A stretch of 64,000 nt of DNA from Candidatus Peribacteraceae bacterium (GTDB lineage Bacteria > Patescibacteriota > Gracilibacteria > Peribacterales > Peribacteraceae). The notes under the pieces are model-generated. The model searched no databases and had not been told where the DNA came from. It was given only the letters and a program-made list of their open reading frames with translations. The first letter of the stretch is position 1, and every line of letters starts with the position of its first letter. The position numbers and the translations under genes are program-made. The stretch is from positions 3,329 to 67,328 of the forward strand of contig JAQTSD010000003.1 in the NCBI GenBank assembly GCA_028711445.1. Direction: 5' to 3'. This document shows positions 1 to 45,744 of the stretch, in pieces.

Positions 1-582
1 GGGGATACCCCTGTGATCTTCGCCGATGTCTCCCTCGACGAGTGGTACGCGCCGTACGTCAGTTACGTCGTGGAGGAGAAGATCGCCACGGGCTACGAGG
101 ATGAAACGGGCAAACCCAAGGGTGAATTCGGCGTGACGAACCCCGTCACGTACGCCGAGGTGCTCAAGATGGCGATGCAAGCTTCTGATGAAGCCTTCGA
201 CCTCAGGGGTCTGCCGCCCCCGCGCAACAAGTCTGCGCAAGGAACGTGGGCAGCGGCCTACGTCGCCAAGGCCGAAGCCCTGCAGCTCTCGGTCTTTGCT
301 CCCTCCCTCGACACGAACAGGCCCGCCACCCGCGGGGCGGTGATTCAGACGATTCTGGAGACGGTGGGGATTCCAACGGGAGCCAAAGCAAAAAGTTCCT
401 TCAGTGACCTGTCAAATGATCATCCTTACGCACCTGCAATCGTTGTAGCGACCACCTACGGGCTCGTCTCCGGCGATATGGATGCATCTGGAAATCCTCT
501 GAACACTTTCCGCCCCGACGAACCGATCAATCGTGCTGAAGTCGCCAAGATTATTGCGCTTGTCAAAGAGCTTCTGGAATAA
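1..582 (+). CDS. S-layer homology (SLH) domain protein, C-terminal fragment (5' end outside window)
   Basis: The frame is open from base 1 to TAA at 580-582. It has three SLH-type repeats (FADVSLDEWYAPYVSYVVEEKIATGY..., ...WAAAYVAKAEALQL..., FSDLSNDHPYAPAIVVATTYGLVSG...INRAEVAKIIA). Confidence 0.75.
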   Translation, partial: GDTPVIFADVSLDEWYAPYVSYVVEEKIATGYEDETGKPKGEFGVTNPVTYAEVLKMAMQASDEAFDLRGLPPPRNKSAQGTWAAAYVAKAEALQLSVFAPSLDTNRPATRGAVIQTILETVGIPTGAKAKSSFSDLSNDHPYAPAIVVATTYGLVSGDMDASGNPLNTFRPDEPINRAEVAKIIALVKELLE

Positions 583-784: not shown

Positions 785-2419
785 TCACAGTTTGGCGCTC
801 GTCGTACACTTCTCAACCAGATCAGTGCGGCCGACGAATTGCCCGTTTGTGTATGGGAAACAGTCATTGGTGAGATCGATCTTAAGCACGCGTTCCAATC
901 GGGCATTGCATGGACGCGTAAGACATGATCTCCGGAGCCAGTATGCAAGACCCCGCGTAAAGTTCCGTACCCCCTTATCGAGAGAGTTACCGTTTTTTGA
1001 GAATTCACTTACGGTCGAGCGGAGAGGGGACAGTTGTGCCATGACGAGCTCCAGTGCTTCCGATGCGATGGGTACCATAGTGCCCTCTTCGCGTTCCTGC
1101 ACACGATCCCACTTCTTCGTCACCGCGCGTGCAAGACGGTTGATCCAACCAACAAAGAAGTCATTCCTCTGCGGGTCGTTGAGCGCTTCCCTATATTTTT
1201 CCGGACGGTCCGGCAAAAATTCTTCAGGGAACTTGTATTGGTCGGGGTAAGGACGCTGTTGTCCCCAGTCGTCACGCAATTGGAGATATTCCCGCAGCAA
1301 TTTCTGATCGTTAAAGTCAAAAGAGAACGGGCCGGTGAGTTCCCATTTCGCTGCTCCTGCGGGCCACTTGGGCGGCCAGTCCTCTTCTGCCGGCTGGTTG
1401 TCCGCATTCCATCCGTCGGAGACCGCACAGCCCAGACGTATACGATGCACACGCTTGTCACTTTTCGCCTGACCGTACCATGCGGATTCGGCAGGAAGCG
1501 AGCGACCCATGAATTTTTCCAGTTTCATGATGCGGGTTTTTAACTGTTCGGAGTCCTCGATCATTTTGTCACGGTCTTCAGTTAACTTTTCAAGGGCAGT
1601 TGTTTCCGCGTCCACTGCTTCATCAATCGTTGAATCGCTTAAGCCAAGGCCGGCGTATCGGGAGAGGACACTTAAGTCGCATCCATAACCAACGGCGATC
1701 GGGTTCGACGTGGTACCGCTTCCCACGGTCGAGGGTGGCAGGTAGTCGGAGTGAAACGGGCATGTCTTCACTTCAGGACAGGCATCATCAGGATCACACA
1801 GTTCCCCTTGTGCATTTTTCGTGTTTGCGATGCAGCACCATTCAGTTGGGTCGAAGATGCGCCGTTGCCACCATTCAGCATCGACATAGGTGTTGTCGTT
1901 ACCGTGCTCCACGAGTTTCTGATATTCATCATTCAGGAAGTAGAGCACACGCGAAAGCAGACCAATAGCAGTCAACTGTTTCTCATCAAAGGCCTGTTCA
2001 ATTTTACATTGTACTTGCCCCATTTTCGCCTCGAGGATGGCGAGATCGATCTCCAGACAGGGAGTGACTTCAATGAGATCGCGCTCCTGGGCTGTGATGC
2101 GGATTTTTGTGTCAGCAATCATTGCGACAGGGGTAAAAGCTGTCTCCAGCCAATGCCAGAAGGAGTACCAGCCTGTGGTTCTTGGGAGCATCATTGCTCT
2201 ATCGATGCCCGCCTGCGCCCGCTCAAGCACTGCACCGACGAAATGGTCAGAGATCGGCTCGAGGGAATCCAGGAGTTCTTCGATAGCGGGAATCGTTCCT
2301 CCATTACATTCGTAGCGAGAGGCAGCCAAAACGGGAGTCCTTCCCAAGATGGACCACATCAGCAGGATAGCAGTCAAGAAGAGAAGGGGGCGGCCGACAG
2401 GCGGATGGTGGAAGATCAT
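785..2419 (-). CDS. Hypothetical secreted protein (operon gene 5 of 5), no recognised family
   Basis: Long ORF. The ATG at 2419-2417 overlaps the upstream TGA (2418-2416) as ATGA; the track's GTG at 2440 is an alternative start. The N-terminus has a hydrophobic signal or anchor (RPLLFLTAILLMWSILG). Cys residues are scattered and long helical segments are present. Confidence 0.7.
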   Translation of the reverse strand: MIFHHPPVGRPLLFLTAILLMWSILGRTPVLAASRYECNGGTIPAIEELLDSLEPISDHFVGAVLERAQAGIDRAMMLPRTTGWYSFWHWLETAFTPVAMIADTKIRITAQERDLIEVTPCLEIDLAILEAKMGQVQCKIEQAFDEKQLTAIGLLSRVLYFLNDEYQKLVEHGNDNTYVDAEWWQRRIFDPTEWCCIANTKNAQGELCDPDDACPEVKTCPFHSDYLPPSTVGSGTTSNPIAVGYGCDLSVLSRYAGLGLSDSTIDEAVDAETTALEKLTEDRDKMIEDSEQLKTRIMKLEKFMGRSLPAESAWYGQAKSDKRVHRIRLGCAVSDGWNADNQPAEEDWPPKWPAGAAKWELTGPFSFDFNDQKLLREYLQLRDDWGQQRPYPDQYKFPEEFLPDRPEKYREALNDPQRNDFFVGWINRLARAVTKKWDRVQEREEGTMVPIASEALELVMAQLSPLRSTVSEFSKNGNSLDKGVRNFTRGLAYWLRRSCLTRPCNARLERVLKIDLTNDCFPYTNGQFVGRTDLVEKCTTSAKL

Positions 2420-4893
2420 GAGCCGTTGTAACGGGGGCACATTTCTTTGGGGAATTTGATCTTACCGATCTTCCCGGTGAGCAGGTTGGCGTCTCCTATG
2501 AGCTCACGGAAGGCCTCCCCTGCGTGCGTGAGATAATCAGCGAGCAAACGGGCGCCGATGCGGCGACCGACGGCCTGTCCGAGAGTGCGCAAGCCCAAAG
2601 TGGATTCAGCACGTTGGGCCACCTGATCGGTGATCCCAAAGCCGAGTTGGAAATACGATTCCGGAGCGAGCCCCAACTGTTTATTCGTATTGAAATCACA
2701 GCGGCTTGGTGGAAAGAGCAACGGTTGGCCATTCTGCTGACAGAGTGCGAGATCGAGATCGGCGGCGAGCTGGGCAGGACGATAAGCCGGGAAGGATGTC
2801 TCGGGGAGCGGGGGGATCGTGAGAACATCGCCGATGAGTGGATCTGCCGCCGTTTTTGCATCCCAGGGGAAAGCCTCGTCGCCACCGGTGAACGTCATGC
2901 GTCCGGGAAGGATGCGCTGATTTTCCAGGGACATCTCAATGCATTGCGCCACATAGCAAACATTGTTACCAATCGTGTTTTCGTAGCGCGCTTTGCACGC
3001 AGGTGAGCAAGCATGTGGAAGCGAATTGATAATGGAGCGCACGCGCGCATCCATATTATTGACAACGTCTTCACATTTTGTGGGGAGCCCGGCGATATTT
3101 TGCTTGCTCGCTTCAAAGATTTTCTTGGTCTCATTTTGAAGCTCCTGCAGCCACTGCTCACGCTCTGTGGCATTTGCCGGTGTGCCTTTTGTGCAGAATC
3201 CACCGAAGCGTTCGCAGCTGAAGTTTACGAGAATATTTGCGCAGTGTTCGATTGTGATGTCCGTCCCCGCGAAGTTGCCGTCTTCAGCGATTGCATTACA
3301 TTGAGCAAGGTATGCGGGCTTTTCTGTTGCGCAACAGTCTTTCAAATTTGAGTACGTCGATGCCCCTTCACACCATTGTTGTGCATGGATGAGCTCATGA
3401 AGCAGTAAGTAGGTGACATTGGCACTCTCTCCCCCTGCGGGGAGGCAGATAGGGATCACACCATTCCGATCTTTCGGATACGTCACGGCATAATCCTCCG
3501 AACAGTTTTGCTCAGGCTCACCAGCTCCATTGCAATAGATGTCCACAGCACAGTTGCCGCAATCAAACGGCGTCGTGATCTTCTCATCACGTTTCGTAGT
3601 GTCCTTTACCGGCTTGTTATCAATCAGTGGAGGATCGGATCTCCAGCCACCGATCATGCATGCATTCGGTCCCGATTCGGTGTGCGCCACGCGGAAACCA
3701 GCTGCTATATTTTGACTGTTACAGTGAGTGAGAGAAATAGCATTCTTTTTCTCTTCGGAAAGAGACGACGACGAAGAGCTACTTTCGTTTGCGGGACAGC
3801 GTTGGGTATCAAGCGGTCGGCAAAGGTAGCCTTCCGCGGAGAATGGGAGGGCACACAATTCTGCCCCCAGAGTATCCGTGCTTGATGGTTCCGAAGGGGG
3901 GAGTGGGTATGTACCGCCGAAAATCCCCTGTCGGATGCATACGGTGTTTCCTTCGGCAGGTGTGCTTGCAGAGCAATCGAGAGACGGGAGTATCGGTTCC
4001 ACGGGGAGCTCCCACTCGAGACCGATATCCTCCTCAAAGGGATTTTTGCTTGCGAACATCCAGAGGATGATCCCCTTATCTGATCGCCATGGCGGGAGGA
4101 GAACGATTTCACCGAAGCCGAGGGGAGGATCGAATGTCAGAGAAGCACGCACTTTCTGAAAGATTTTCTGCAGATCCTCTTCGATCGTGCACCAGCGGGC
4201 GTGCTGATATTGCAGTTCCGTCCCGTCCCCTTTCTCCATGGCGGGATCGCATGTTCCTTCCCGATTGACGAGTCCGAAGAGACCAAATTGATAGCGCCAG
4301 ACAGCAGCCGTAAGGTGTTCTGGCTGGTTGGAGTCATTATCATTCAGTTTGTCGAGGTGCTCTTGGAGAGTTTTCAGTTCACTCTTGGCGAGATCAGTGA
4401 AGGCCGGTCCGGCACGCATGCGACGTTCTGCAATGGGAGTACTTAGCCAGTCATTGCTTGATTGCCAGACGCGGACAATGCTCTGAAACTTCGGAAAGAT
4501 AGAAAGGATACGGCTCGGGTGGTCGCCAATTGGCATCTCATAGCCGCCTGCAATGAGCTGGAGATCGCGGCCCAGGGCACGCACGCGCTCCTCACGGAGC
4601 ACGGCAGCACGGATCTCTTTACGCAGCTGCTCGCAGGATTCATCGTCCAGTTTTCGGGAACTACACACGCTCGATCGGAATGATGTGGAATCATTTGAGG
4701 TGGCGATATCATCCGGGCTAAGACTTGGATTCGCGACGAAGGCTTTTGCAAGAAAAGCTTTCACCGTCTCTTGCGGGGAATCGTATTCCCACTGGACGGT
4801 CCCCCGTATCGTTTCATAGAGAGGCTTTGCTGTCGCGGTCGCGGGCAGCAGCATGAGGGCGATGCCGGCGGAGGGAAGGAGATATCTCATCAT
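2416..4893 (-). CDS. Hypothetical secreted Cys-rich protein with HExxH motif (operon gene 4 of 5)
   Basis: 825-aa ORF with signal peptide MMRYLLPSAGIALMLLPATATA. HELIH is encoded at 3385-3399 in the context TYLLLHELIHAQQW. The start overlaps the upstream stop as ATGA (4890-4893). Confidence 0.75.
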   Translation of the reverse strand: MMRYLLPSAGIALMLLPATATAKPLYETIRGTVQWEYDSPQETVKAFLAKAFVANPSLSPDDIATSNDSTSFRSSVCSSRKLDDESCEQLRKEIRAAVLREERVRALGRDLQLIAGGYEMPIGDHPSRILSIFPKFQSIVRVWQSSNDWLSTPIAERRMRAGPAFTDLAKSELKTLQEHLDKLNDNDSNQPEHLTAAVWRYQFGLFGLVNREGTCDPAMEKGDGTELQYQHARWCTIEEDLQKIFQKVRASLTFDPPLGFGEIVLLPPWRSDKGIILWMFASKNPFEEDIGLEWELPVEPILPSLDCSASTPAEGNTVCIRQGIFGGTYPLPPSEPSSTDTLGAELCALPFSAEGYLCRPLDTQRCPANESSSSSSSLSEEKKNAISLTHCNSQNIAAGFRVAHTESGPNACMIGGWRSDPPLIDNKPVKDTTKRDEKITTPFDCGNCAVDIYCNGAGEPEQNCSEDYAVTYPKDRNGVIPICLPAGGESANVTYLLLHELIHAQQWCEGASTYSNLKDCCATEKPAYLAQCNAIAEDGNFAGTDITIEHCANILVNFSCERFGGFCTKGTPANATEREQWLQELQNETKKIFEASKQNIAGLPTKCEDVVNNMDARVRSIINSLPHACSPACKARYENTIGNNVCYVAQCIEMSLENQRILPGRMTFTGGDEAFPWDAKTAADPLIGDVLTIPPLPETSFPAYRPAQLAADLDLALCQQNGQPLLFPPSRCDFNTNKQLGLAPESYFQLGFGITDQVAQRAESTLGLRTLGQAVGRRIGARLLADYLTHAGEAFRELIGDANLLTGKIGKIKFPKEMCPRYNGS

Positions 4894-5747
4894 TCGTTCT
4901 CGAAGTCACGGAGAGGTTCTTTGGCATTCCAGACGCGCGGTAAACAAGAGGCGGCGTCAGCCGCGAGAGCCAGGCCATTGCGGATGTCGAGGGAAGCGCG
5001 CTGCACACAAATCAATTCCATATCGATCGGTTGCAAGCGGTTGTAGCCGCTTACAAAGGTCAGTGTTTTGAGGAGAGCTGCCCGTGCGGTTACCAGTTCT
5101 TTTCGAATTCTAAAGCGTTCATCGTCATCCATGCCTCCGAGGATCGGGATCTCGATGACGACTTTTGGAACAGATAGGCCGAAGAGTACCCATTGGCGGT
5201 AGGCTTCTTGTCGCAGGATATAGGCTGGCAACAGATTGAGGCGTTCGACGAGTGCGCACTCGTACATACGCAGGTATTCAAGGAGGACTGTTCCCATGTC
5301 GAGCTGGTTCAAGCGGGAAAGGTTGGTCGAGTTTTTCCAAGAGGGAAGCTTCTTAGCGAGGGATTTGAGTTCCGAGCGCGGCGTGAGAAAACCGGCATAG
5401 TTTGTAGCTGTGCAGCGTGGGGAACGGCTTGGAGAACGAAGTGGACTGCTGTCTAAAACGAGTTCCCCCAAGTCCTCTTCAATTATCTTGCTGACGGTAG
5501 AATGGTAGGAGTTGGACCACTCATCCAATACATTTGCCGTATTGAGTTTTGGAGTATCGTGCAAAGACTTGAAATCAATGTCCTTGAAGAGTTCTCCTTC
5601 AAAGCGGGTACACGCAGCAAGAACCGGCAGTGCAGTGGCACTTCTGGATGCGTAGGCAACCGATCCTCCAATGATCGTCAATCCGATCATGAGCGACAGG
5701 GCCCAGAGACGGGAACGAAGGCCGAAAGAGAAGCGAGAGGGAATCAT
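4890..5747 (-). CDS. Hypothetical secreted/membrane-anchored protein (operon gene 3 of 5)
   Basis: 285-aa ORF with an N-terminal hydrophobic anchor (LWALSLMIGLTIIGGSVAYA). Only a 3-nt gap separates it from the upstream stop (5751-5753). Confidence 0.65.
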   Translation of the reverse strand: MIPSRFSFGLRSRLWALSLMIGLTIIGGSVAYASRSATALPVLAACTRFEGELFKDIDFKSLHDTPKLNTANVLDEWSNSYHSTVSKIIEEDLGELVLDSSPLRSPSRSPRCTATNYAGFLTPRSELKSLAKKLPSWKNSTNLSRLNQLDMGTVLLEYLRMYECALVERLNLLPAYILRQEAYRQWVLFGLSVPKVVIEIPILGGMDDDERFRIRKELVTARAALLKTLTFVSGYNRLQPIDMELICVQRASLDIRNGLALAADAASCLPRVWNAKEPLRDFENE

Positions 5748-5750
5748 GAT

Positions 5751-6683
5751 TTATGAATGCGCAGAAGAGGCAGCAGATGACGCGGCTGAGGAAGCGGAGG
5801 ATGCAGGATCCTCGTCTCTCGGACCGGGCAGATTGGTGTCAAAATCCGGTGGAAGCTCCTCGCAACTGGAGAGGAAGCAAGGAATACGTTGGAGCCAACC
5901 GAGGATTTGGGATGCGGAGCGGATATTGCCCGCAAGCGTCCAGCGGAACTCTTCGAGGAATTCATCGAAGACACCTGAAAATTGCAGGAGAGACCGGTAC
6001 GAGGCATCGTACTCAACGAGCATCTTCAGCGTCTCCTCTTCCTGCTGGAGCATTTCTCTAGCTGCCGACGTGCAGTACGTATAGACATCCACCTCTTGAC
6101 GCATTTCCTGCTTATTCGCCATTTGGCAGGGGGCGAACGTTTTGGTGGGAACAGGAATGCAGCCAGGGACAGAGATGGTCACTTCCTGTGGGGCACTGTC
6201 CGAAGGAACGCCAATCGATTTCTGTGCCAGTCTGCAAACCTGTTCCGTACGACACTGCAGTGCCCGGAAACTTACAGTGAGAGCGGGAATGAGACGTGAG
6301 GTAAGTACGCCCTTTGTTGCGAAAATGCCACGGCGAGGGAAGGAAGTGGCACTCACAAGATCCTGTTCAGCAGATGCGTCCATAGTGTCGTTATCTTGCG
6401 TTGTCCACGTGTCTGCAGAAAGATTCTGCCATGTGGTGTCCTCTACCTTGTACCAGGCGATGCCACTCTGATCGAACCACACTTCGCCGATAGCTGCATC
6501 TTTGGCTTTGGGACGTCCAAAAAGAGTGGTGCGATAGATGCGTTCTTCATGGAAGAGGGTGGCGTCTACCACCGCTCGACAGGCGTCGGCTCCCGTTACG
6601 GGAGCGGCAGTAGCATAAACGGCTGATGTCAGCCCCAAAAGAGTGACGAGAAGAGAGCCTGCAAGAGCGATGCGTTGCGTCAT
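5751..6683 (-). CDS. Hypothetical secreted protein (operon gene 2 of 5)
   Basis: 310-aa ORF with signal peptide MTQRIALAGSLLVTLLGLTSAVYA and a Ser/Ala-rich C-terminal tail (ASSASSAASSAASSAHS). It has an ATGA overlap with the upstream gene (6680-6683). Confidence 0.7.
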   Translation of the reverse strand: MTQRIALAGSLLVTLLGLTSAVYATAAPVTGADACRAVVDATLFHEERIYRTTLFGRPKAKDAAIGEVWFDQSGIAWYKVEDTTWQNLSADTWTTQDNDTMDASAEQDLVSATSFPRRGIFATKGVLTSRLIPALTVSFRALQCRTEQVCRLAQKSIGVPSDSAPQEVTISVPGCIPVPTKTFAPCQMANKQEMRQEVDVYTYCTSAAREMLQQEEETLKMLVEYDASYRSLLQFSGVFDEFLEEFRWTLAGNIRSASQILGWLQRIPCFLSSCEELPPDFDTNLPGPRDEDPASSASSAASSAASSAHS

Positions 6684-9600
6684 GTACCTGAGAAGGATGA
6701 ACTCGAACCGTCTGTAGGGATGGGGATGAGCGGAGAGGGGGAGGGAACGGCAAACGACGGGATGATGTCATTGCACCCTTGCTCATAGGGGAAGGCGGAG
6801 CTCGATGAACCTTTTTTGCACGCCGTGGAACGCAGCAGGCAGACACGGGCTTGTTCTATCGGATCATCGGAAGCGGGATCGGAACAAAAATCGGAATCGG
6901 GGGGAACGACGATTCCAGACCAGCTTACGGACCATCCGCTGCGCGGAAAAGTGTCGGTCTCGTTTAAGATTTGGCAAGCCCAGTCTTTGCCAGCGCACGA
7001 ATCTGCACCAAATCCCACTGCTGTTCCGGCTGTATCCAGATGGCCGGGATTCAGGCGGAACTTTCCAAGACTCGCAAGATCCTCTTTCAACAGGATAGCC
7101 GGACGTGAACCGAAGCGGGCGATCCGCTCGCGGAGATCGAACTCCGTGTGGACACATGTTTCGCTGTGTCGCGTATAGCAATCCTGCTCTGTGAGTGCTT
7201 TGAATGGTTCTCCGTCCTCCGGATCGCCAATCGTCATGCTTTTCCAAAAGAGGTTGTACTCCTTCCCCATGTTTGTGATGGAGGTTTTGATTTTCGCCAT
7301 TGTTGCCTGAATCTTTGAAAGCTCATCACTATCAATAGTATTGAAGGTGATGGAAGGTGGAGGAGCGCCTGTTTCTATCTTGGGGAAGAAGGCTTCTGCA
7401 TCATCTACGATGCTCGGAGTTTCGGGAAGAGGGGGGAGAATGGGGACTGAGACATTCTTCGCGTGGGGAAAGGGAGGAAGCAGCAACTCGGTTTTCAACT
7501 TGAGCTGGATCGGTCGGAGTACGGGGAGCTTGAGGGAGCCCGTGTGGAGTCGTAGCATTGTAAAATCAAAAGATGCATCTGCAAGACGAGGGACAGAGAG
7601 CTTCGGAAGGTCGGCAGCATCGAGGCCGGGTCGGTTCGGAAGCCAGGGGTCCAGGAGGGAGTAAATTGGAACGGTGAATCGTTCGGAGTGGCACCAGGGC
7701 ATACATTGTTCATCGTGGATCTGACGGTAGCGATCCTGGATCTTCTCCCAGTTTTTGCGGATAGTTGCAAACGTTGTGAGCTGCCCCTGGAATCTTTCGA
7801 AGTCACTCAGAACCTTGTCAGAAAGCCACTCACTGATTTGTGAGGCAATCTTCTTCTCATGCTCAAAGAGCTGACCGAGCATCTGTGCGAGTTCTGAGCG
7901 GAGTTTGCGCGTCTCGGTGATGGCGAGTGCATACTCTTCCAGCCGATTCACCAGCTTCTGTGCGCCGATGATATCCTCACTCGAACCGAGATTTTGCTGC
8001 ATTTTAATCCATTCACGCCATCCCTCTGCGTATGCACGGAACTCCGTTGCGGATCCCATGGGGACAGTGACAGGGAGCGGCTCCTGTTCGATAGTGGGCA
8101 GGAGTGAATACTTCAGAAAGAGTTTCACTTCATCGAGGAGGTCCGGACGCGCTTCAAGTTGCACTTCGATGGCTTCGAGACGCGGATCCGTAACGGAAGG
8201 GGAAATACGCTTGGGGGTGAAGAACGGGTCGAGAATATCAAGGCCTACGGACCATGTGGGAGGAAGGAGGATGCGAACGACAGGAGGAGTGAGGAGCACG
8301 TGCATCTGCGTTTCCTGCTGCTGCCACCACTCTGTGATGGTGCGCTTGGTCCCGCGGTCCGTGGAAACCGTGTCATCAAATGCTCGTAGCAGAGCTCCGG
8401 TGGAGAGCATATGCTTCGGATCAATTTGCGGCAGGGACAGAAGTTCCACCGGATCGGAAGGCTGATAGAGGGCGAGAGTGAGATCGTCGTTGTACTTATC
8501 CTTCATTACCTCTCCGTTTGTGAGAGAGAAGGCATTGGATATTCCCGTATCCCAAAGGTTATCGGGGTCGCTCGCTGTGCGATGGGTGGCGGGCCCATCG
8601 GAGTGGGAAGAGCCGTACTCACCTTTCCCTTTCTGCGTCTTGTCCATTTTCCAGAAGTTGCGGTCACCAGAGTAGTAGGCGGCGATGACGCAGTTCTTGT
8701 TGAAATTAGCCGCTTTCGTCGTGAGAAAATCCGTGTAGTCCGTATCGAAGAGGCTGTAACAGGAGACGGGAATGTCCGTTTTGTCCGCGTCATCGCTGGA
8801 GACGTACTTCGATTTCACTTTGTCGCGAGTGTAACTCGCGGTGTAGTGACGGTAGAACGATCGGTAGGCTTGACCGCGTTTCGATGGGCCTTTCGAGACG
8901 GAGATGCAGTTAGCACTGCAGCCTGCGGCCTTGCATGCATCCTTGCAGGCTTTCACTTCATTTCCCCACGGTGGGTAGAACTGCTTGCGTGGCTTCTCCT
9001 GTACTTCGCAGTTCGCTCCGTTGCAGGTTTCACAGTTCTTGAGGAGCATTACGGTGTCCCCTGACGTATCCCCCGCGCCGCTCTCGGGTCCGTAAATCGT
9101 TCCATTCATACTCTGGTGGGTGCAGCATTCGCGGGTGTCGGCGAGGATGTAATCCTCGTATGCCGGTTGAATTTCATCCTGGCATTTCGTGCATGGTTCT
9201 TCGTGGTATCGTGTGACTGAGCAAGAGGCCGAGTGCCAGACGCCGAGAGCATCCGAGCAACCGCCCGTCAGGGTTTCGCTCTTTTCGTAGTATCCGTAGA
9301 TCCAGTGCGTGTTGAGGTATCCGCAGAGGCCGCCGGTCGTATCAAGGGAGCCGCAGACGCTCCCATTCGACGGCATCTGCCCGCCTCCGCAACTGAATTC
9401 GATTTCCCCCCGCCCCGGCGGTTGCGGGTTATTGGGCGGATCATCATCACACTGAGGAGTGGCGATGTTTCCCAGCGGCCGCTGACACGGAAAGTATTTG
9501 TAGAAAGATGGCTCCCCGGGACGGCAGGAAGACCGGAACCCGCAAACGGAGGAAATATCTTTGATGCTCATAAGAGAGCCAGAGCCCTCTGCGCGTGCGG

Positions 9601-9907
9601 CCATCCCGGAACGGGGATTCCCCAAAGAGTTGCCCGTACGGCCGGGTACCCCCGAGACATTGGCGAACTTGCCATTCACGGAATCCTCGAAGTCCCATCC
9701 GCCACACTGCGCCTTCTTCAGGTCTTCCGGGATTTCTTGTTCAATGACAGTCTTGATGGCATCGAAGTCGCCCGGTTTTTCATTGGGGATGTTGTACGCT
9801 GCCGCCCAGACGGATTGAGTTCCGAGAGAAAACGCCGAAAAGACAATCAGCAAAGAGGGAACTCTCATAAGAGTGGCCATCCGATAGGGTGCGCTTCCCT
9901 CAAACAT
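6680..9907 (-). CDS. Large hypothetical secreted Cys-rich protein (operon gene 1 of 5)
   Basis: 1075-aa ORF. Possible starts are 9907, 9880 or 9868. A GAGGGAAG Shine-Dalgarno-like element (the last base of the first codon plus the next two codons and G of the fourth, ~9899-9906) lies ahead of the 9880 ATG. The signal peptide is MRVPSLLIVFSAFSLGTQSVWA. The first ~400 residues hold many Cys clusters (CTKC, CETCNGANC, CKDACKAAGCSANC), followed by long helical regions. Confidence 0.75.
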   Translation of the reverse strand: MFEGSAPYRMATLMRVPSLLIVFSAFSLGTQSVWAAAYNIPNEKPGDFDAIKTVIEQEIPEDLKKAQCGGWDFEDSVNGKFANVSGVPGRTGNSLGNPRSGMAARAEGSGSLMSIKDISSVCGFRSSCRPGEPSFYKYFPCQRPLGNIATPQCDDDPPNNPQPPGRGEIEFSCGGGQMPSNGSVCGSLDTTGGLCGYLNTHWIYGYYEKSETLTGGCSDALGVWHSASCSVTRYHEEPCTKCQDEIQPAYEDYILADTRECCTHQSMNGTIYGPESGAGDTSGDTVMLLKNCETCNGANCEVQEKPRKQFYPPWGNEVKACKDACKAAGCSANCISVSKGPSKRGQAYRSFYRHYTASYTRDKVKSKYVSSDDADKTDIPVSCYSLFDTDYTDFLTTKAANFNKNCVIAAYYSGDRNFWKMDKTQKGKGEYGSSHSDGPATHRTASDPDNLWDTGISNAFSLTNGEVMKDKYNDDLTLALYQPSDPVELLSLPQIDPKHMLSTGALLRAFDDTVSTDRGTKRTITEWWQQQETQMHVLLTPPVVRILLPPTWSVGLDILDPFFTPKRISPSVTDPRLEAIEVQLEARPDLLDEVKLFLKYSLLPTIEQEPLPVTVPMGSATEFRAYAEGWREWIKMQQNLGSSEDIIGAQKLVNRLEEYALAITETRKLRSELAQMLGQLFEHEKKIASQISEWLSDKVLSDFERFQGQLTTFATIRKNWEKIQDRYRQIHDEQCMPWCHSERFTVPIYSLLDPWLPNRPGLDAADLPKLSVPRLADASFDFTMLRLHTGSLKLPVLRPIQLKLKTELLLPPFPHAKNVSVPILPPLPETPSIVDDAEAFFPKIETGAPPPSITFNTIDSDELSKIQATMAKIKTSITNMGKEYNLFWKSMTIGDPEDGEPFKALTEQDCYTRHSETCVHTEFDLRERIARFGSRPAILLKEDLASLGKFRLNPGHLDTAGTAVGFGADSCAGKDWACQILNETDTFPRSGWSVSWSGIVVPPDSDFCSDPASDDPIEQARVCLLRSTACKKGSSSSAFPYEQGCNDIIPSFAVPSPSPLIPIPTDGSSSSFSGT

Positions 9908-10128
9908 CGGCGCTCAGTGTACCTTGAAGCCCGTCATAATGCGGTTCAACAGCGGTTGACTCACGAGCTCTTATGTACTCATTACTCTTCGAAAGATAGT
10001 GCGCTATAAAATATCCATTCATGCAATTTCAATCAGTTGACCCACAACCGCAAGTGGTGGACGATCGTCCACGGTTCGCCATCGGCACGCAACGATCGGA
10101 CCTCCTCTACTTCCATTCCCCCTCTTCT

Positions 10129-10986
10129 ATGTTCTCTCTCAATCGCGTGCATATCATCGGCTATCAAACACAGCCATTGCAGGTACGTACAACGCCCGGC
10201 GGAGCGAGTGTTGTCGACCTGAATCTTGTCGTACCGTACGGTTTCAAGTCTCCTCAGGGCGAGGCGCTTACAGGCAAAGGATTCCACGTCGTCACACTGT
10301 GGGGTCCCATGGCGGAAGTAGCAGGCCAATATATAAAGCCTGGATCGCAGGTGTTCGTTTCCGGCCGACTCCAGACGGATAGTTGGGAAGACGAGAAAAC
10401 CAAAGAGAAACGTAGTAAAACCAAGATCGTCGCACTCGACATGATTCTCCTCGATCCGAAGGACGGCCAACGACCGGCACCGAAGAATGCATCCTCTCTG
10501 CTCGCTCTCCTCAATCGCGCTGATGTCATCGGCAATGTGACGAAGGATCCGGAAATCCGTACGACAACGAACGGGCAGCAGGTGCTCACGCTCGGTGTGG
10601 CGACCAATGAACGATGGCGTGAGAAAGCAACGGGGGCCGATCGCGAGCGCACGGAGTTCCACAATGTCGTCATTTGGGGTGCCCTCGCGCAGGAAGTTGC
10701 CTCCGCAGTAAAGAAAGGTCAGCGCCTCCATGTCTCCGGCAGGGTGCAGACCAGAAGTTGGGAGACGCAGCAGGGTTCCAAACGCACAACTACCGAAATC
10801 ATCGCCGAGTCTGTCTCTCTGCTTGGGGTCGCCAATCCGGCGGCACTCGAATCCGTCCAGGCGGATGCCGCTCCACGTTCCCGGCAGGAAGATGAATCCG
10901 CAGTCGTGCATGATGAAGCCCCGGCAGATACTATCCCCGCCGTACAGTATGCATCGGAGATCAAGGTGGAGGATTTGCCGTTTTAA
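10129..10986 (+). CDS. ssb: Single-stranded DNA-binding protein with two tandem OB folds
   Basis: There are two SSB-like OB modules: LNRVHIIGYQTQPLQVRTT...VFVSGRLQTDSWED and LNRADVIGNVTKDPEIRTTTNGQQVLTLGVATNERW...FHNVVIWGALAQEV...LHVSGRVQTRSWE. The tail ends in the acidic tip EDLPF. I prefer the ATG at 10129 over the track start 10021. Confidence 0.85.
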   Translation: MFSLNRVHIIGYQTQPLQVRTTPGGASVVDLNLVVPYGFKSPQGEALTGKGFHVVTLWGPMAEVAGQYIKPGSQVFVSGRLQTDSWEDEKTKEKRSKTKIVALDMILLDPKDGQRPAPKNASSLLALLNRADVIGNVTKDPEIRTTTNGQQVLTLGVATNERWREKATGADRERTEFHNVVIWGALAQEVASAVKKGQRLHVSGRVQTRSWETQQGSKRTTTEIIAESVSLLGVANPAALESVQADAAPRSRQEDESAVVHDEAPADTIPAVQYASEIKVEDLPF

Positions 10987-11001
10987 AGTTCCCTCGTACT
11001 T

Positions 11002-11033
11002 CCGTAGCCGGGGTTCATGAACCCCGGCTACGG
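11002..11033. terminator. Perfect 14-bp-stem hairpin downstream of ssb
   Basis: CCGTAGCCGGGGTT-CATG-AACCCCGGCTACGG is a perfect palindrome. It starts 16 nt after the ssb stop and also lies downstream of the minus-strand murB/small-ORF unit. Confidence 0.6.
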
Positions 11034-11070
11034 AGAACAGAGATACTATAGGAGAAATGACCGCGTTCAC

Positions 11071-11262
11071 TCAGCGGGCTGAGTTCCTCTTCTCCGGAGA
11101 GATGCAGTGTTTTGTTTGTTGGAGAAACAGGTCGTGGCGGCGTTTGAGAGCTTCCTGAATAGCCTGTTGCGTGATGGGGGATGGGGTTTCTCTGTCTTTT
11201 CCCTCAGGGGGATGCCGTGAGAGCATCGATGGTTTTTCTCTCGCGTAACTCCGCATACACAT
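11071..11262 (-). CDS. Possible small basic protein (63 aa), unknown function
   Basis: The ORF fills the gap between the murB stop (11302) and the bidirectional hairpin. No family recognised. It could be noncoding. Confidence 0.25.
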   Translation of the reverse strand: MCMRSYAREKPSMLSRHPPEGKDRETPSPITQQAIQEALKRRHDLFLQQTKHCISPEKRNSAR

Positions 11263-11301
11263 GGTCTATCACGACACGGATGCCCAAGCCAATAATTCCG
11301 T

Positions 11302-12171
11302 TCATGTGAGTACTCGGCCGGTCTCGTCGATCAACCGCATCTCCAATTCCAGAGGCGCACCCGTTTTCCTGCGGATGATTTGTACGAGATTAAAGGCATC
11401 TGCGTATGTGGCGTCGCCAGTATTGACGAGGAAGTTTGCATGCTTCGGACTCGTCTCCACCCCACCCACCCGAAAACCGCGCAACTGTGCCTGATCGATG
11501 ATCTGCCATGCCGGTGTTCCGTCTGACAGAGCCTTGAAGCATGATCCCGCAGTCATCCTGAAGGGCTGCGTTCCCTGGCGTTTCGTAAGGAGAGAGCGGA
11601 TTTCTTGAGTTATCTCCTCCTGCGGGCGGGATGGAGGGGCAAGGTGCGCGCTCCAAAGAATAATGGGAGATGGACTGTACTTGAAGACACTGTCACGGTA
11701 GCTGAACGCACATTCCTCCTTCGGAAATGTGCGCCACGAACCATCGAGAAAAGCCGTGACGGATTCAACGAAGTGGCCGATCCAAAAACCTTTCGGCCCC
11801 TGACCCGCATTGCCGAAGAGAGCGCCGCCGAGTGTTCCGGGAATCCCCGTGAGCGCGGAAAGATCCAGATCGTGCTGCGCGAGAGCATTCACGATATACC
11901 CGACCGACCGACCAACTTCCACTTCCACCCGGTTGCCGTCGACGGACAGATGATCCGCCACAATGCGCACAACCAATGCGTTGATCAGAGAGTCTGCGAA
12001 GATGGTGTTCGATCCAGCGCCGAGAACGAGGAGCGGTACCTTCTTCTTCCGTGCGAATTGCCACGCTTCTTCCACATCACTCTTCGTCTTGAGCTCTGCG
12101 TAGTACCGCGCGGAGCCGCCGATATGCATCGTCGTCTTCAACTTAAGCGACTCATGTTCCTTCACGTTCAT
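11302..12171 (-). CDS. murB: UDP-N-acetylenolpyruvoylglucosamine reductase
   Basis: N-terminal MurB FAD-binding pattern (LKTTMHIGGSARYY...VPLLVLGAGSNTIFAD). Length is 289 aa. Confidence 0.85.
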   Translation of the reverse strand: MNVKEHESLKLKTTMHIGGSARYYAELKTKSDVEEAWQFARKKKVPLLVLGAGSNTIFADSLINALVVRIVADHLSVDGNRVEVEVGRSVGYIVNALAQHDLDLSALTGIPGTLGGALFGNAGQGPKGFWIGHFVESVTAFLDGSWRTFPKEECAFSYRDSVFKYSPSPIILWSAHLAPPSRPQEEITQEIRSLLTKRQGTQPFRMTAGSCFKALSDGTPAWQIIDQAQLRGFRVGGVETSPKHANFLVNTGDATYADAFNLVQIIRRKTGAPLELEMRLIDETGRVLT

Positions 12172-12179
12172 AGCAAGTC

Positions 12180-12644
12180 TTATTTTGACAGCAAATGTGC
12201 AATCTTCTCCATACTGTCAGCGACTTTTTGGCCACGCGAACCCCGATGAACGCGTGTGAGGATGCTGGCAAGCAGGGAAAGGAAAAGAAGGCCCCCTGCG
12301 ACGATAAAGAGCTCCGTCCTGCCGAGCGTTCCGTAGAACGGCTGGAGAGCAAGCTGCACGACGGCGAAGCAGAAGACGCCGAAGAGCGTACCGACGCCGA
12401 GTGTTACGAGGATCAGATGCGTGCGATTTTCCTGCGAATCCTGCGCGGCGCTGGCGATGGACGTAAGGAGCTCGCTATGGATGATGATGGGGGTCTCGCC
12501 CCACTGCTTGAAGAGCGGGAGGATCTTACGTTGGAGGATGAGCATGACGAATGTGCGGAAAGACACCGCAGTCTTGCCTTCGATCACGGCGCGGGTGTTC
12601 TCGGTTTTGAGGGTGACTTCGATATCAGGAGAGAGGAGCGTCAT
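12180..12644 (-). CDS. Hypothetical membrane protein
   Basis: 154-aa ORF with two C-terminal hydrophobic spans (LILVTLGVGTLFGVFCFAVV, LFIVAGGLLFLSLLASIL). It is tightly packed between gltX and murB. Confidence 0.55.
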   Translation of the reverse strand: MTLLSPDIEVTLKTENTRAVIEGKTAVSFRTFVMLILQRKILPLFKQWGETPIIIHSELLTSIASAAQDSQENRTHLILVTLGVGTLFGVFCFAVVQLALQPFYGTLGRTELFIVAGGLLFLSLLASILTRVHRGSRGQKVADSMEKIAHLLSK

Positions 12645-12689
12645 AGGAGGAGTGTAGGACGGGAGGCTCTGAAGCGCCAGATTGCCGAT

Positions 12690-14162
12690 TCATTGTGTTA
12701 TCAACCGCCTCGCCGCCTCCAGCCGTGCAATCGTCACGTCTTTCCCGAGCGCCGCGGCCACTTCATAAGCGCCGGGGCTGTAAGGCAGGCCCGTGAGAGC
12801 GGCTCTCAACGGCCAGAGGACCTGGCCGATCTTCCAACCGTTTCCTTCTGCGAGCTTTTTCAATGTCTCCGAGAGGACACTCTCGGTCCATTCATCCGTG
12901 AGGACACCGTCGAGCGTGTTCGAGAGCTCTTCAAGAATCTTCGGAAGGATCTCATGTGATACTTTCTGCTTGGCGTTTGCCAGTAGGTCGACGGAAGGGG
13001 TCGGCTCTTCGTAGAAGAAACTCAGGAGCGCAGGAGCCTCGGAGAAGAAGGTCACGCGTTCCTGAATGAGCCTCGTTTTCGCTGTGAAATCCTTATCCCG
13101 GGAGGCGGGAGGATATTTCTCTGCGACGACGGGGAGGACTCTCTTCGCAAACTCGGCGGCAGGGAGCCTGCGAATCCACTGTCCTTGCAGCCAATCAAGC
13201 TTTTCAGTGTCGAAGATCGCCCCCGCCTTTTGCATGCGATCAAGAGAGAATGCTTCGATGAGATCTTCAAGAGTGAAGATTTCCTGGGTCGTGCCGGGAT
13301 TCCACCCAAGCAGCGCGATGAAGTTCACAAATGCTTCCGGGAGGTAGCCTTTCTGGACGTATTCCTCGACCGAGACGGCACTCTGACGCTTGCTCAGCTT
13401 CGTGCGATCTTTATTCAGCAGGAGCGGCACGTGCGCGTAGCGCGGCGGTTTCCAGCCGAGATACTGGAAGAGGAGCAGGTGTTTCGGAGTGGAGCTCAGC
13501 CACTCCTCGCCGCGAATGACGACAGAGATGTCCATGAAGTGATCATCGACGACGTGTGCGAGGTGATACGTCGGGAAGCCGTCGCTCTTGAGGAGCACTT
13601 GGTCGTCGATCGTATGCCCTTGGAAGGACATAGGCCCGCGGATCTCGTCTTCGTAGGCGATTATTTCATTTCGGGGAACTTTCAATCGAAGCACGTGAGG
13701 TTCTCCGGAAGTGATGCGACGTTGCACCTCTTCGTCCTTCAGTTTTATACATGTACGGTCGTACATGGGGGCCTGCTTGCGTGCTTCCTGCTCCGTACGC
13801 ATCTTCTCAAGGCGCTTCGGCGAGCAAAAACAAACGTAGGCATGGCCGCTCTTCAGGAGTTCCTGGGCGTGGTGTCGATAGAGCGCGAGTCTTTCAGATT
13901 GGATGTATGGACCGCGTGTACCCTTTTGCGTGATCAGACCTTTCTCCAGCATCACTCCTTCATCTGGGTGGATACCGGCCCAGTGGAGAGCCGTAAGCAT
14001 GTTTTCGACGGCATCCGGGACGGAGCGCTCACGATCGGTATCTTCGATGCGAACGATGAATGTTCCTTTCGATTGCTTGGCAAGCAGGTAGGCAGAGAGC
14101 GCTGTGCGTAATCCCCCAACATGAAGATATCCGGTAGGCGAGGGGGCGAAACGAGTGCGCAT
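12690..14162 (-). CDS. gltX: Glutamate--tRNA ligase
   Basis: Class I signature RFAPSPTGYLHVGGLRTAL and a KLSKRQ (KMSKS-type) motif. The ATG at 14162 gives the canonical MRTRFAPSPTG N-terminus; the track's GTG at 14207 is an alternative start. Confidence 0.9.
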   Translation of the reverse strand: MRTRFAPSPTGYLHVGGLRTALSAYLLAKQSKGTFIVRIEDTDRERSVPDAVENMLTALHWAGIHPDEGVMLEKGLITQKGTRGPYIQSERLALYRHHAQELLKSGHAYVCFCSPKRLEKMRTEQEARKQAPMYDRTCIKLKDEEVQRRITSGEPHVLRLKVPRNEIIAYEDEIRGPMSFQGHTIDDQVLLKSDGFPTYHLAHVVDDHFMDISVVIRGEEWLSSTPKHLLLFQYLGWKPPRYAHVPLLLNKDRTKLSKRQSAVSVEEYVQKGYLPEAFVNFIALLGWNPGTTQEIFTLEDLIEAFSLDRMQKAGAIFDTEKLDWLQGQWIRRLPAAEFAKRVLPVVAEKYPPASRDKDFTAKTRLIQERVTFFSEAPALLSFFYEEPTPSVDLLANAKQKVSHEILPKILEELSNTLDGVLTDEWTESVLSETLKKLAEGNGWKIGQVLWPLRAALTGLPYSPGAYEVAAALGKDVTIARLEAARRLITQ

Positions 14163-23945: not shown

Positions 23946-25757
23946 CTATTTCAAGCCGCGTTTCACCATCCTCGCCGCCCGTCGAGCAGATGCTCGGTCG
24001 AGAGCTGCCTGCCTAGCTGCCTTTCTTGCGGCCACTCTGCTCTGAAGGCCGGAAGGGCCTCCAACGGGAGTGGAAATAACAGGCGTGGAGTTTTTCGGGG
24101 CAGTTGGAGTGGAAGCAAGCTTGGAAGCGGTGGAAGCTGAACGCCGACCACCTCCGCCACCAGAAGACGTGCCGGAAGTCGCAGCTGTGGCAGCAGTCGT
24201 GGCGACAGTGAAGGTCCAGTTGGTGTTGTTGCCGCTATCGGTGCAGCCCGTGGTGCAGGCGAGGGGGGTGACGTGAGCGTTATTTGAATCTTTTACGTCG
24301 AGGTAACTCGTGGAACGGGGCCCGTTTGAGGCGAGGATCTTGAAAGCGGTTCCCGAAACTCCAGAACGCAAGCTCAGAAGATTCCCGTCGGTACCTTTGA
24401 GGATCAAATCAGCTGCGATGAAGATTCCTTCGGTCGGATAAATGGTGAGCGTGTAAGCTGAAGTGACACTCTTTGTCAGCTTGTTGACAAGGAAGGAGCC
24501 ACTCATCGTTTGGTTCGTACCGTCGAGAGTCATCGTTCCGGCAGATTGTGAAAAGGTAGCCAAACGATTGACCGTGACATTCCCCGCAAGAAATGCGTTA
24601 CCGATGGCCATCGACGCTTGAGCGGCATCGGCGAGTGTCACATTTCCGTCGATGTTCATATCGAGGGAGTTGCTTGCGGTATCGAGATTTCCCAAGGTGA
24701 TGACAAGAGCACCCGAGCAACGGAGTATTCCGCCAGCAACAGTGATGTCGTCACTCGTTCCGCCTCCCGAATTATTGATAGTTAAGTTGTAGAGGGACTG
24801 ACCGTCGATATCGAGAGCCTGATCGGCCGAGCCGTTCAGGGTGAGGGTTCCTCCTGAGACTGTAAGTGTTGCTGCATCTCCGACCGAGATATTTCCAGCG
24901 ACCGCCCAGTTGGATTCCGTGACCATTGTTGCTTGTGCGGCATTGGCAATGGTGACGTTCCCTTCCACATTCAATCGGTTGTTGTTCGTATCAAGATCGA
25001 GGTTACCCAGGGTGATCGTGAGCGAACCTGAGAGGGCAAGACCTCCATTGACGTTCACATGAACGTCATCGTTTGTTGTCCCTCCGGCGTTATTCAGTGT
25101 GAGATTCTGGAAGACCTTCGTCACGTTCGCCCCAATCGTGAAGTTCTGGTCGATGTTGCCGTTCAGGGTGAGGGTGCCAGTAGACGAGAATTGAGGAACA
25201 ACGGTGCCACCCTTGGTGACGGAGAGCGAACCGGAGAGGGTTGTGGTGTTCTGAAGACCTGTAACGTAGCCTCCTGTCTGCGTGAAGTTTCCGAGGATCG
25301 TCACCGCAGCGTTTCCTCCGATGAGCTTTCCGCTTCCCATCTTTACGCCGCCGACTCCGATGGAGAGCGTGCCCGTTCCCTGCAAGAGAGAGCCTGTCCA
25401 GACGTTATTGATGACGAGGCCGGCGATCGAGACGGCGCTGCGAATGCGGACTTGCGCTCCGCTGGAGAAGAGGACGACCGTATCGCTCGCTCCAGGAATG
25501 CCGGCACCGGCCGGCCCTTTGGGGATGGAAGCCCAGTTGGTTGCCGACTCCCAACGACCGAGTTCGGTAGCTGCCCCTGCCCAGTAGTACGTCGCAGCTT
25601 GTGCGGGAACGCTCATCAGGAAGAAAAGCGCGAGACCGATGGCAAGAAAAATTGCTGCGCGTAGCAAATACTTGTCAGAGGATAAAAAGTATTCCATATA
25701 GTCTGAGAGGAACAGAATATTGGAGGGATATTCCCACTTTTGCTTCTTCTGATGCAA
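23946..25757 (-). CDS. Secreted repeat-rich beta-helix-like surface protein (adhesin-like)
   Basis: Signal or anchor LLRAAIFLAIGLALFFLMSVPAQA, then ATYYWAG...W...NW. There are about 2.5 internal repeats of ~105 aa (TLTLNG..DQ...NLT[LI]NN.GG.T.DD...SG.L.ITLGNLD...). The tail is Thr/Ala/Gly-rich and then basic. An alternative start is at 25697. Confidence 0.7.
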   Translation of the reverse strand: MHQKKQKWEYPSNILFLSDYMEYFLSSDKYLLRAAIFLAIGLALFFLMSVPAQAATYYWAGAATELGRWESATNWASIPKGPAGAGIPGASDTVVLFSSGAQVRIRSAVSIAGLVINNVWTGSLLQGTGTLSIGVGGVKMGSGKLIGGNAAVTILGNFTQTGGYVTGLQNTTTLSGSLSVTKGGTVVPQFSSTGTLTLNGNIDQNFTIGANVTKVFQNLTLNNAGGTTNDDVHVNVNGGLALSGSLTITLGNLDLDTNNNRLNVEGNVTIANAAQATMVTESNWAVAGNISVGDAATLTVSGGTLTLNGSADQALDIDGQSLYNLTINNSGGGTSDDITVAGGILRCSGALVITLGNLDTASNSLDMNIDGNVTLADAAQASMAIGNAFLAGNVTVNRLATFSQSAGTMTLDGTNQTMSGSFLVNKLTKSVTSAYTLTIYPTEGIFIAADLILKGTDGNLLSLRSGVSGTAFKILASNGPRSTSYLDVKDSNNAHVTPLACTTGCTDSGNNTNWTFTVATTAATAATSGTSSGGGGGRRSASTASKLASTPTAPKNSTPVISTPVGGPSGLQSRVAARKAARQAALDRASARRAARMVKRGLK

Positions 25758-31020: not shown

Positions 31021-31029
31021 GGGAGGCGG

Positions 31030-31770
31030 TTACTTGATCTGATTGCCACGCTTTGCGATGCGCCGCGTGAATGTGCGGTCGTCAGAAACGACATGGCCGT
31101 CATGGAGACGGATGATGCGCTCCGCGTGCTCGGCTGTCGCTTGTTCGTGTGTGACGAGGATGATCGTGTGGCCGGCTCGATGCAGATTCTGGAGGATTTC
31201 CATCACATGTGTTCCGGATGCCGAGTCGAGATTGCCCGTGGGTTCGTCTGCAAAGATGATCTCGGGTGTTGTTACGAGTGCCCGAGCAATTGCTACACGT
31301 TGCTGTTGTCCTCCGGAGAGCTGATTCGAAAGGTAGGTCGCGCGGTCCTTCAGGCCGACGGACTCGATTGCTTTCATTGCCTTGTCCCTTCGTTCGGAAA
31401 CTCGCGTGGTGCTGTTGTAGAGCAGCGGCAGCATCACATTGTCGAAGACGGAAGTACGTGGCAAAAGGTTGAATGATTGAAAGACGAAGCTCACGCTCGT
31501 TGAGCGGATGCGTGCAAGCTCGTCTTCTGTCTTCTCCTCCGTGGAAGCGCCCTTGAAGTGGTAGTGGCCACTCGTGGGCACATCAAGGAAGCCGAGGATA
31601 TGCATGAGCGTGGACTTCCCCGACCCGGACGGTCCCATGATGGCTACGAATTCTCCATTGGAGATGGAGAGATTGATGTTATAGAGCACCGGCGTCTCCA
31701 CTTCGTCGTTCACGTAGGATTTGTTCAGGCCAACCAATTCGATGAGAGGGGTGGATTCGGAGGAAGCCAT
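31030..31770 (-). CDS. ABC transporter ATP-binding protein (MacB/LolD-type)
   Basis: [15 protein letters not shown] Walker [16 protein letters not shown] signature, [12 protein letters not shown] Walker B. Confidence 0.92.
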
Positions 31771-31772
31771 GA

Positions 31773-33506: not shown

Positions 33507-33690
33507 CAATCGGGAGGAGAAAATGAGCGAAGAAGATACCAGAATTTTTGGCTTCTGAGATGAGTTCTCCGATGTTTCCTGAGTGTAGTACTCCACATCA
33601 ATAATTATATATGTCAATTACCCATAAATCAAGCATATTTAAGCCGATATTTGGCTATCGAATGAGAAATTCGTTACACTTTTTACTCAC

Positions 33691-39879: not shown

Positions 39880-41392
<1,513 letters not shown>

Positions 41393-45719: not shown

Positions 45720-45744
45720 GGTAAACTCTCCCGTTGGTTCCGTC

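Follow-up and report, generated by a model that had tools for sequence, protein, structure and literature searches.

A five-gene operon in an uncultivated bacterium, Candidatus Peribacteraceae (GenBank assembly GCA_028711445.1, contig JAQTSD010000003.1), may encode the subunits of one envelope assembly. In a stretch of 64,000 nucleotides (nt) of this contig (hereafter referred to as the window), genes A to E lie one behind another on the minus strand. Their products are Cys-rich proteins with export signals, the same five genes recur in the same order across the Peregrinibacteria, and the evolutionary rates of the five families co-vary. With a probability that we put at roughly 45%, A–E would be the subunits of one vertically inherited, Peregrinibacteria-specific, Sec-exported and disulfide-stabilized envelope assembly with a constitutive role. 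The Peregrinibacteria belong to the Candidate Phyla Radiation (CPR); they have reduced genomes and remain uncultivated, and their envelope and lifestyle have been inferred only from genomes. No paper describing the operon was found in the library searched.

The genes A–E form one tightly coupled operon (Table 1). The junctions read exactly as an earlier, sequence-only reading of this DNA had described them, with three ATGA stop/start overlaps and one 3-nt gap joining five minus-strand open reading frames (ORFs). A separate gene caller identified the same five genes (1075, 310, 285, 825 and 544 amino acids (aa)) on an independent Logan assembly contig. At the internal starts as read, no evident Shine–Dalgarno-like sequence precedes B, C, D or E, which fits termination–reinitiation coupling. 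Promoters and terminators within the operon were no more numerous than in shuffled sequence, and no sigma-70 consensus was found in the intergenic region between A and the divergent ssb gene. The GC content of the operon is uniform with that of the surrounding DNA.

To describe the distribution of the operon, we scanned one genome per GTDB species, which yielded 74 loci, and searched the ORFs of these loci with family profiles; the ORF starts in these loci are mechanical calls. Fifty-eight loci hold A–B–C–D–E in order on one strand, 15 end inside the operon at a contig edge, and one (L068) is without B. Co-occurrence of the five genes in related genomes, which the sequence-only reading had set as a test, was thus observed in 58 of the 59 loci that reach past E. 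The distance from the upstream stop to the downstream start is −8 to +10 nt in 65/67 loci at the A/B junction, 62/65 at B/C, 65/66 at C/D and 60/60 at D/E. A 4-nt overlap is the commonest arrangement at A/B (40/67 loci), C/D (41/66) and D/E (39/60), and an 8-nt overlap is the commonest at B/C. The junctions and this conserved tight spacing together uphold the earlier view of a single coupled operon.

The position of the operon is equally stable. The ssb gene is divergent upstream of A in at least 57/65 loci and dnaE lies downstream of E in 49/56, and the genes beyond ssb (murB-x-gltX-PPIase-murG-ftsW-GT2-tsaB-secA) have the same order in the window and in distant genomes. The operon occurs once per contig and has no paralogue within the 64-kb window. 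Each of A–E has homologues in dozens of genomes. The labels of the loci are nearly all Peregrinibacteria, Peribacteria or generic Patescibacteria, and every homologue of A and D is annotated as unnamed or hypothetical and comes from a metagenome-assembled genome (MAG) of the Peregrinibacteria, Peribacteria or Patescibacteria. An exhaustive HMMER profile search with D retrieved only 280 proteins among 1.84 billion representatives, indicating a compact family. Two loci with the full operon carry unexpected labels, Kiritimatiellales (L014, JAIPIN010000018.1) and Gracilibacteria (L052, CAVOCY010000019.1), which suggests mis-binning or differing taxonomy labels; GTDB places the Peregrinibacteria orders in the class Gracilibacteria. 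In one lineage (L004, 19971–20420; L005, 11317–11766), a 149-aa gene with a weak match to the prepilin N_methyl family lies between E and dnaE.

All five proteins appear to be exported. The N-terminus of each bears one hydrophobic segment, after which comes a small-x-small site (VWA↓A, VYA↓T, AYA↓S, ATA↓K and LAA↓S for A to E), and on manual reading all five show the features of a signal peptidase I substrate. The signal peptides and putative cleavage sites were judged by rule (basic n-region, hydrophobic h-region, small-x-small site). No second segment of transmembrane strength is present in any of A–E. The N-terminal hydrophobic segment occurs in nearly all homologues, with a conserved h-region and no recurrent second membrane segment. 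The C-termini of A–E, as read, show neither a hydrophobic segment nor the LPXTG motif of sortase substrates.

Protein C is a candidate membrane tether. Eleven of its 59 homologues have a canonical lipobox, which would place C on the outer face of the membrane, as a lipoprotein, in at least those lineages. The window's own C reads IIGGSVAYA, with no Cys at the position required by the lipobox pattern L-[AS]-[GA]-C.

The five proteins contain 33 (A; 23 within the first 406 residues), 8 (B), 5 (C), 31 (D) and 14 (E) Cys residues, corresponding to 1.8–3.8% of their residues, as compared with 0–1.7% in most neighbouring cytoplasmic genes (a TsaB-like gene, at 3.0%, is the exception). Among 66–81 homologues, the Cys residues conserved at 85% or more are 8/8 in B, 5/5 in C, 22/31 in D, 8/14 in E and 14/33 in A; these figures, like the distance-matrix (mirror-tree) figures below, are based on fast MAFFT alignments. 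The majority of the cysteines are therefore conserved, as expected for structural disulfides in exported proteins. The odd number of conserved Cys residues in C (five) was considered as a sign of inter-subunit disulfides and set aside as a lead only, these counts being alignment-dependent. In published Peribacteria genomes the proteome is unusually Cys-rich overall, at 1.67%, and giant proteins with a far higher Cys content form a class of their own (PMC4736985); the Cys-richness of A–E is therefore genuine, though in part it is a lineage trait. Several statements of the sequence-only reading are confirmed by these data: a Sec-type signal or anchor on every product with no further span, about 30 Cys residues in the 1075-aa protein mostly in its first ~400 residues, Cys-richness of the two largest proteins, and two Ser/Ala-rich C-terminal tails, which belong to A and B.

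None of the five proteins could be assigned to a known family, in agreement with the sequence-only reading. Scans of A–E against Pfam and NCBIfam gave no match at E ≤ 0.05, and scans against PHROGs (E ≤ 0.01) and PADLOC (E ≤ 0.1) were likewise negative. Sequence profile searches of the PDB with the five families and the inserted module of D described below gave nothing below E 0.09. Per-member Pfam scans of 26–59 homologues per family revealed no recurrent match save a zincin signal in D, and the family scans detected no adhesin, lectin or repeat domain in A–E and no hydrolase family in A, B, C or E. The 32 homologue clusters of A are all unnamed or hypothetical, and none carries a Pfam domain. 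Comparison of the five families with one another using hhalign indicated no paralogy beyond the signal peptides. One homologue of E has a lineage-specific insertion of a DUF4215 domain, the Cys-rich repeat of Myxococcus.

AlphaFold2 models, computed from family alignments, were made for A and D, with mean predicted local distance difference test (pLDDT) scores of 61.5 for A and 66.4 for D (confident blocks at residues 40–330 and 420–620 of D). Following its signal peptide, A comprises a Cys-rich, β-rich N-terminal half (residues ~50–420) and a C-terminal half that is conserved and contains a long helical hairpin (~620–734). B consists of a signal peptide, a part whose eight Cys residues are all conserved and a Ser/Ala-rich C-terminal tail; C has an N-terminal signal or anchor and five conserved Cys residues, and E a signal peptide and eight. 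In D, the signal peptide is followed by an N-terminal domain (~40–330), an inserted zincin-like module, and a Cys-rich and helical C-terminal part. The long helices in the models span residues 620–734 and 860–889 of A and 84–143 and 747–810 of D. Foldseek searches returned no fold match, with best E-values against the PDB of 2.2 for A and 0.53 for D, and of 0.25 for A against BFVD. A resemblance of A to a class II fusogen or other viral glycoprotein was rejected on these searches of PDB and BFVD. TolC-like and pore-forming-toxin folds were also rejected, the weak OprN, MtrE and LukGH matches having a probability of 0.05 or less.

The sequence-only reading had seen only a bare HExxH motif in D. 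This description does not hold, as the motif lies within a conserved, Cys-rich module of ~200 residues with ~12 conserved Cys residues that, in orthologues, falls just under the Peptidase M76 threshold. AlphaFold2 predicts the module confidently (helices 493–509 and 517–537, pLDDT 75–90) and places E524 on the helix following that of HELIH, at a spacing similar to that of the third zinc ligand in thermolysin-type gluzincins. The HExxH motif is kept in ~80% of the D family members and is not universal. Across the D modules of 45 genomes, the sub-threshold Pfam matches were to zincin families only: Peptidase_M76 in 9/45, DUF6782 in 6 and Peptidase_M91 in 6, with one or two matches each to PhageMetallopep, YgjP-like, MPTase-PolyVal, Tox-MPTase5 and eCIS_core. 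The best M76 score, for the L002 orthologue, is 23.3 bits (E 6.1e-5), below the 25.2-bit gathering threshold, and the L019 orthologue aligns to positions 41–142 of the 170 in the M76 profile. The window's D itself has no Peptidase_M76 match at E ≤ 1, and a Foldseek search of the whole D model against the PDB gave no peptidase at E < 0.5. Because the sub-threshold zincin matches recur, with M76 foremost, we read the module as a divergent Atp23-like zincin. Atp23 is a disulfide-rich processing peptidase with ten Cys residues and five disulfides, in an oxidizing compartment (PMC8452992, PMC5349226); going by the titles of the original reports, it is also a chaperone and assembly factor (PMC8452992, PMC5349226).

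D can do without this module, which is missing from 6 of the 58 complete loci, from P0125 and from a set of ~630–680-aa D variants, and the exact HExxH motif has been lost in ~14 further loci that still hold the module. In lineages without the module, the N-terminal Cys-rich half of A is absent (L081, in which A has 546 aa) or weak (L070, L072, L075 and L079), with L071 as an exception. This linked variation suggests a functional link between the module and the N-terminal half of A, as a lead only that may reflect a single clade. B, C and E, together with the C-terminal half of A and the two terminal parts of D, make up the conserved core. In L012 (11150–11851), a bacterial, calcium-binding TSP3 repeat is inserted in the module.

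The rates of evolution tie the five families together. In 24 genomes, the pairwise-distance matrices of A–E correlate at 0.91–0.96. After the mean divergence of five housekeeping neighbours had been regressed out, residual correlations of 0.56–0.75 remained among A–E, as compared with −0.40 to 0.38 for control pairs; the tightest groupings are A with D and E, and B with C. This rate co-variation beyond the species signal supports a shared constraint on A–E, in itself no proof of contact. Across the lineage, A–E have 24–45% identity and the neighbours 40–82%, such that A–E are the faster-evolving genes. The operon does not look like a variable accessory trait: its fixed, single-copy site by ssb, dnaE and the murB-murG-ftsW-secA block hints at a housekeeping function in the construction or upkeep of the envelope.

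In the envelope assembly that we favour, the coupled operon would deliver the five products in fixed proportion. These would be exported through Sec, relieved of their signal peptides and oxidatively folded, and would then come together at the outer face of the cytoplasmic membrane or within the wall zone. C would serve as the membrane tether, lipid-anchored in about one-fifth of lineages, and the long helical hairpins of A and D may act as spacers. The Atp23/M76-like module of D would not constitute the core activity but would process a partner or help it to assemble; this partner may be the Cys-rich N-terminal half of A. Several observations weigh against this proposal. In most lineages, including that of the window, A–E show no obvious anchor after signal-peptide cleavage. 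The L068 MAG (9860–14061), in which A is followed directly by C, is the sole complete locus missing a subunit, and B was undetectable there even with the HMMER speed filters off and an E-value limit of 100. The rate co-variation could stem from a shared extracellular selective regime instead of contact, and rapid evolution also fits host-facing proteins. The lack of fold matches carries limited weight, because the A and D models are of moderate confidence (pLDDT 61–66). The stoichiometric assembly already put forward by the sequence-only reading has gained from the conserved coupling, the rate co-variation and the lipobox of some C homologues; complex formation and function are nevertheless still inferred.

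Other accounts of the operon are less probable. A bolder version of the envelope assembly, possible but doubtful, would be a five-subunit extracellular machine of novel folds that defines an envelope organelle of the Peregrinibacteria, such as a structure that spans the wall or serves cell contact; the conserved core described above would be its core, to which the Cys-rich N-terminal half of A and the Atp23-like maturation protease would be accessory. An attachment or contact apparatus for a partner or host, that is, a multi-subunit adhesin in a presumed symbiotic lifestyle in which the variable Cys-rich N-terminal half of A would be exposed for binding and matured by the protease module of D, seems less likely than the constitutive envelope role. 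The much faster divergence of A–E than of their cytoplasmic neighbours keeps this adhesin reading alive, and it is favoured by the fact that the variable, dispensable parts are the D module and the Cys-rich N-terminal domain of A, as well as by the prepilin-like gene that follows the operon in one lineage. Adhesin loci, however, are usually multi-copy, strain-variable and mobile, whereas this operon occurs once per contig in fixed housekeeping surroundings and is kept in essentially every sampled species. The strongest constraint, moreover, falls on the conserved core defined above, and the scans of A–E brought up no known adhesin, lectin or repeat domain.

It is improbable that A–E are five independent secreted proteins, such as an exoprotease (D) with scavenging or lytic factors, that are co-regulated without forming a complex. 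Such an arrangement would account for the peptidase-like module of D, for the conserved AxA-type sites in D and E, which suggest soluble mature proteins, and for the lack of an evident anchor in most lineages. Yet strict order and tight coupling at all four junctions over deep divergence go beyond the needs of co-regulation, and about one-third of lineages have lost the module or its HExxH motif while keeping the rest of D. The residual rate co-variation, the lipid anchor of C in 11/59 homologues and the lack of a hydrolase family in A, B, C and E also argue against independent factors. The notion that the operon is a mobile element, a prophage or a recent island, or that its ORFs are not real genes, has nothing in its favour except the missing annotation, and is refuted for practical purposes by the 58/74 loci with all genes in order. 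Phage, plasmid and IMG/VR viral-contig collections hold no relative of A–E, and the PHROGs and PADLOC scans were negative. In GC content the operon matches the DNA around it, the same flanking genes recur in distant genomes, and the homologues track species divergence.

Table 1. Positions of the genes, junctions and D-module features of the operon in the window
Feature	Position	Strand	Basis
Gene A, 1075 aa	6680–9907	−	ORF and translation
Gene B, 310 aa	5751–6683	−	ORF and translation
Gene C, 285 aa	4890–5747	−	ORF and translation
Gene D, 825 aa	2416–4893	−	ORF and translation
Gene E, 544 aa from ATG at 2419 (alternative GTG at 2440, 551 aa)	785–2419	−	ORF and translation
A/B junction, ATGA stop/start overlap	6680–6683	−	Sequence
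B/C junction, 3-nt spacer, reads TAA-ATC-ATG	5748–5750	−	Sequence
C/D junction, ATGA overlap	4890–4893	−	Sequence
D/E junction, ATGA overlap	2416–2419	−	Sequence
A–ssb divergent intergenic region, 113 bp, presumed operon promoter region	9908–10020	n/a	ORF map
Optional Cys-rich zincin-like module of D, residues 425–625	3019–3621	−	Sub-threshold zincin matches
HELIH motif, D residues 499–503	3385–3399	−	Translation
E524 of D, Glu 21 residues past H503 (second His)	3322–3324	−	Conserved in at least 90% of members

On its downstream side, the operon is convergent with an ORF (13–582, plus strand) that is the C-terminal S-layer homology (SLH) part of a 946-aa protein. The sequence-only reading had drawn a connection to this cell-wall-binding gene. 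The convergent gene is indeed present, and the connection is not supported: among the loci, an SLH gene comes after the operon in this genome and its Logan twin alone, in the place that dnaE takes in most loci, and is therefore an incidental neighbour. No SLH match was found in A–E.

The remainder of the window holds several further features. The ssb gene (10021–10986, plus strand) encodes a 321-aa protein with two SSB/OB domains and 64–73% identity across the phylum. Between gltX and murB, a 154-aa protein is encoded at 12180–12644 (minus strand), whose counterparts have no recorded Pfam domain; a gene of similar size occupies this position in distant Peregrinibacteria, with 46–62% identity, and may be a further conserved, lineage-specific gene of the cell-wall block. 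A 603-aa ORF at 23946–25757 (minus strand) has no Pfam match and probably encodes another exported orphan protein, because it has an N-terminal hydrophobic segment ending in AQA. At 28565–33617 (minus strand), two adjacent MacB-type permeases (MacB_PCD and FtsX, 406 and 412 aa) lie beside a 614-aa HlyD-like membrane-fusion protein, a set reminiscent of tripartite-style exporters; the lineage is presumed to possess just one membrane. A complete bacterial 16S rRNA gene is located at 39879–41392 (minus strand); no match to 23S, 5S or tRNA genes was found anywhere in the 64-kb window, and the rRNA genes thus appear to be unlinked. The region 45628–49933 has a strongly negative AT skew (−0.20 to −0.23) and long overlapping ORFs of 602 aa (plus strand), 765 aa (minus strand) and 488 aa (plus strand). 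The 602-aa and 765-aa ORFs have no Pfam match, and the N-terminus of the 488-aa product resembles that of MBOAT/AlgI-type membrane O-acyltransferases.

At ~9 kb, the operon is estimated to occupy near 1% of such a genome, solely for exported proteins without detectable relatives, which makes it one of the clearest candidates for a surface or envelope structure that defines the lineage. The operon offers defined targets, namely five families with conserved cysteines, a likely tether in C and an optional protease module in D, and provides a clean genomic marker for the phylum. If A–E were independent secreted factors, the finding would shrink to a set of conserved hypothetical genes.

A comparison with known systems, with fold models for two of the five subunits, places the operon, in our rating, outside every described kind. 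A–E show none of the features that define S-layer/SLH, pilus, Mce, sortase-substrate, phage or defence systems. The family scans and neighbourhoods agree with the sequence-only reading, which had found no resemblance to pili, secretion systems, S-layers or adhesin loci. For type IV pili and type II secretion systems in particular, no N_methyl or T2SS/T4P family match was found in A–E, and the neighbours are ssb, dnaE and mur genes.

Mce operons consist of consecutive genes, each of whose products has an N-terminal signal or anchor and long helices, and which together build one envelope-spanning hetero-oligomer. The operon described here shares the run of consecutive genes, the N-terminal signal or anchor on each product and the long helical regions. 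By contrast, A–E have no MlaD/MCE domain in Pfam or NCBIfam scans, no adjacent permease or ATPase genes, and no paralogy among the five. The P1 and P40/P90 proteins of Mycoplasma pneumoniae are lineage-restricted large surface proteins with C-terminal membrane anchors, encoded in a compact operon of a reduced-genome, host-dependent bacterium. They resemble A–E as large, lineage-restricted proteins without outside homologues from a compact operon, and differ in that there is no sequence or fold relation and that the present operon has five subunits, which bear signal peptides only and are rich in disulfide cysteines.

WxL, LPXTG and DUF916-type domains are found in the csc proteins, which exist as many paralogues. 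The csc clusters of Lactobacillus plantarum and other Gram-positive bacteria (PMC1534035) are, like A–E, conserved clusters of genes for signal-peptide proteins of unknown function, for which a surface complex was inferred from clustering, whereas WxL, LPXTG and DUF916-type domains were undetected in A–E, the operon occurs once per contig, and there is no homology.

The likeness to M76/Atp23, a processing peptidase and assembly chaperone of the mitochondrial intermembrane space, is confined to residues 425–625 of D. It comprises HExxH on a helix, with a conserved Glu ~20 residues on, on the next helix; a small, Cys-rich domain (ten Cys residues and five disulfides in Atp23 (PMC8452992), ~12 conserved Cys residues in the D module); presumed operation outside the cytoplasm; and the best and most frequent Pfam match in the D family, over up to ~100 residues. 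The differences are that the scores stay under the cut-off (23.3 versus 25.2 bits at best) with no PDB structural match, and that the module is an insertion in an otherwise unrelated 825-aa protein, absent in 6/58 loci and with its motif lost in ~14 more.

The large extracellular proteins of Candidatus Peribacter riflensis (Anantharaman et al. 2016, PMC4736985) share with A–E the lineage, signal peptides, elevated Cys content, the lack of a functional prediction and a proposed surface role. Those proteins average 7.2% Cys and 1,655 aa, include a 14-gene cluster and are reported to be strain-variable, whereas A–E, with 1.8–3.8% Cys, are products of five genes of fixed size and fixed order found phylum-wide.

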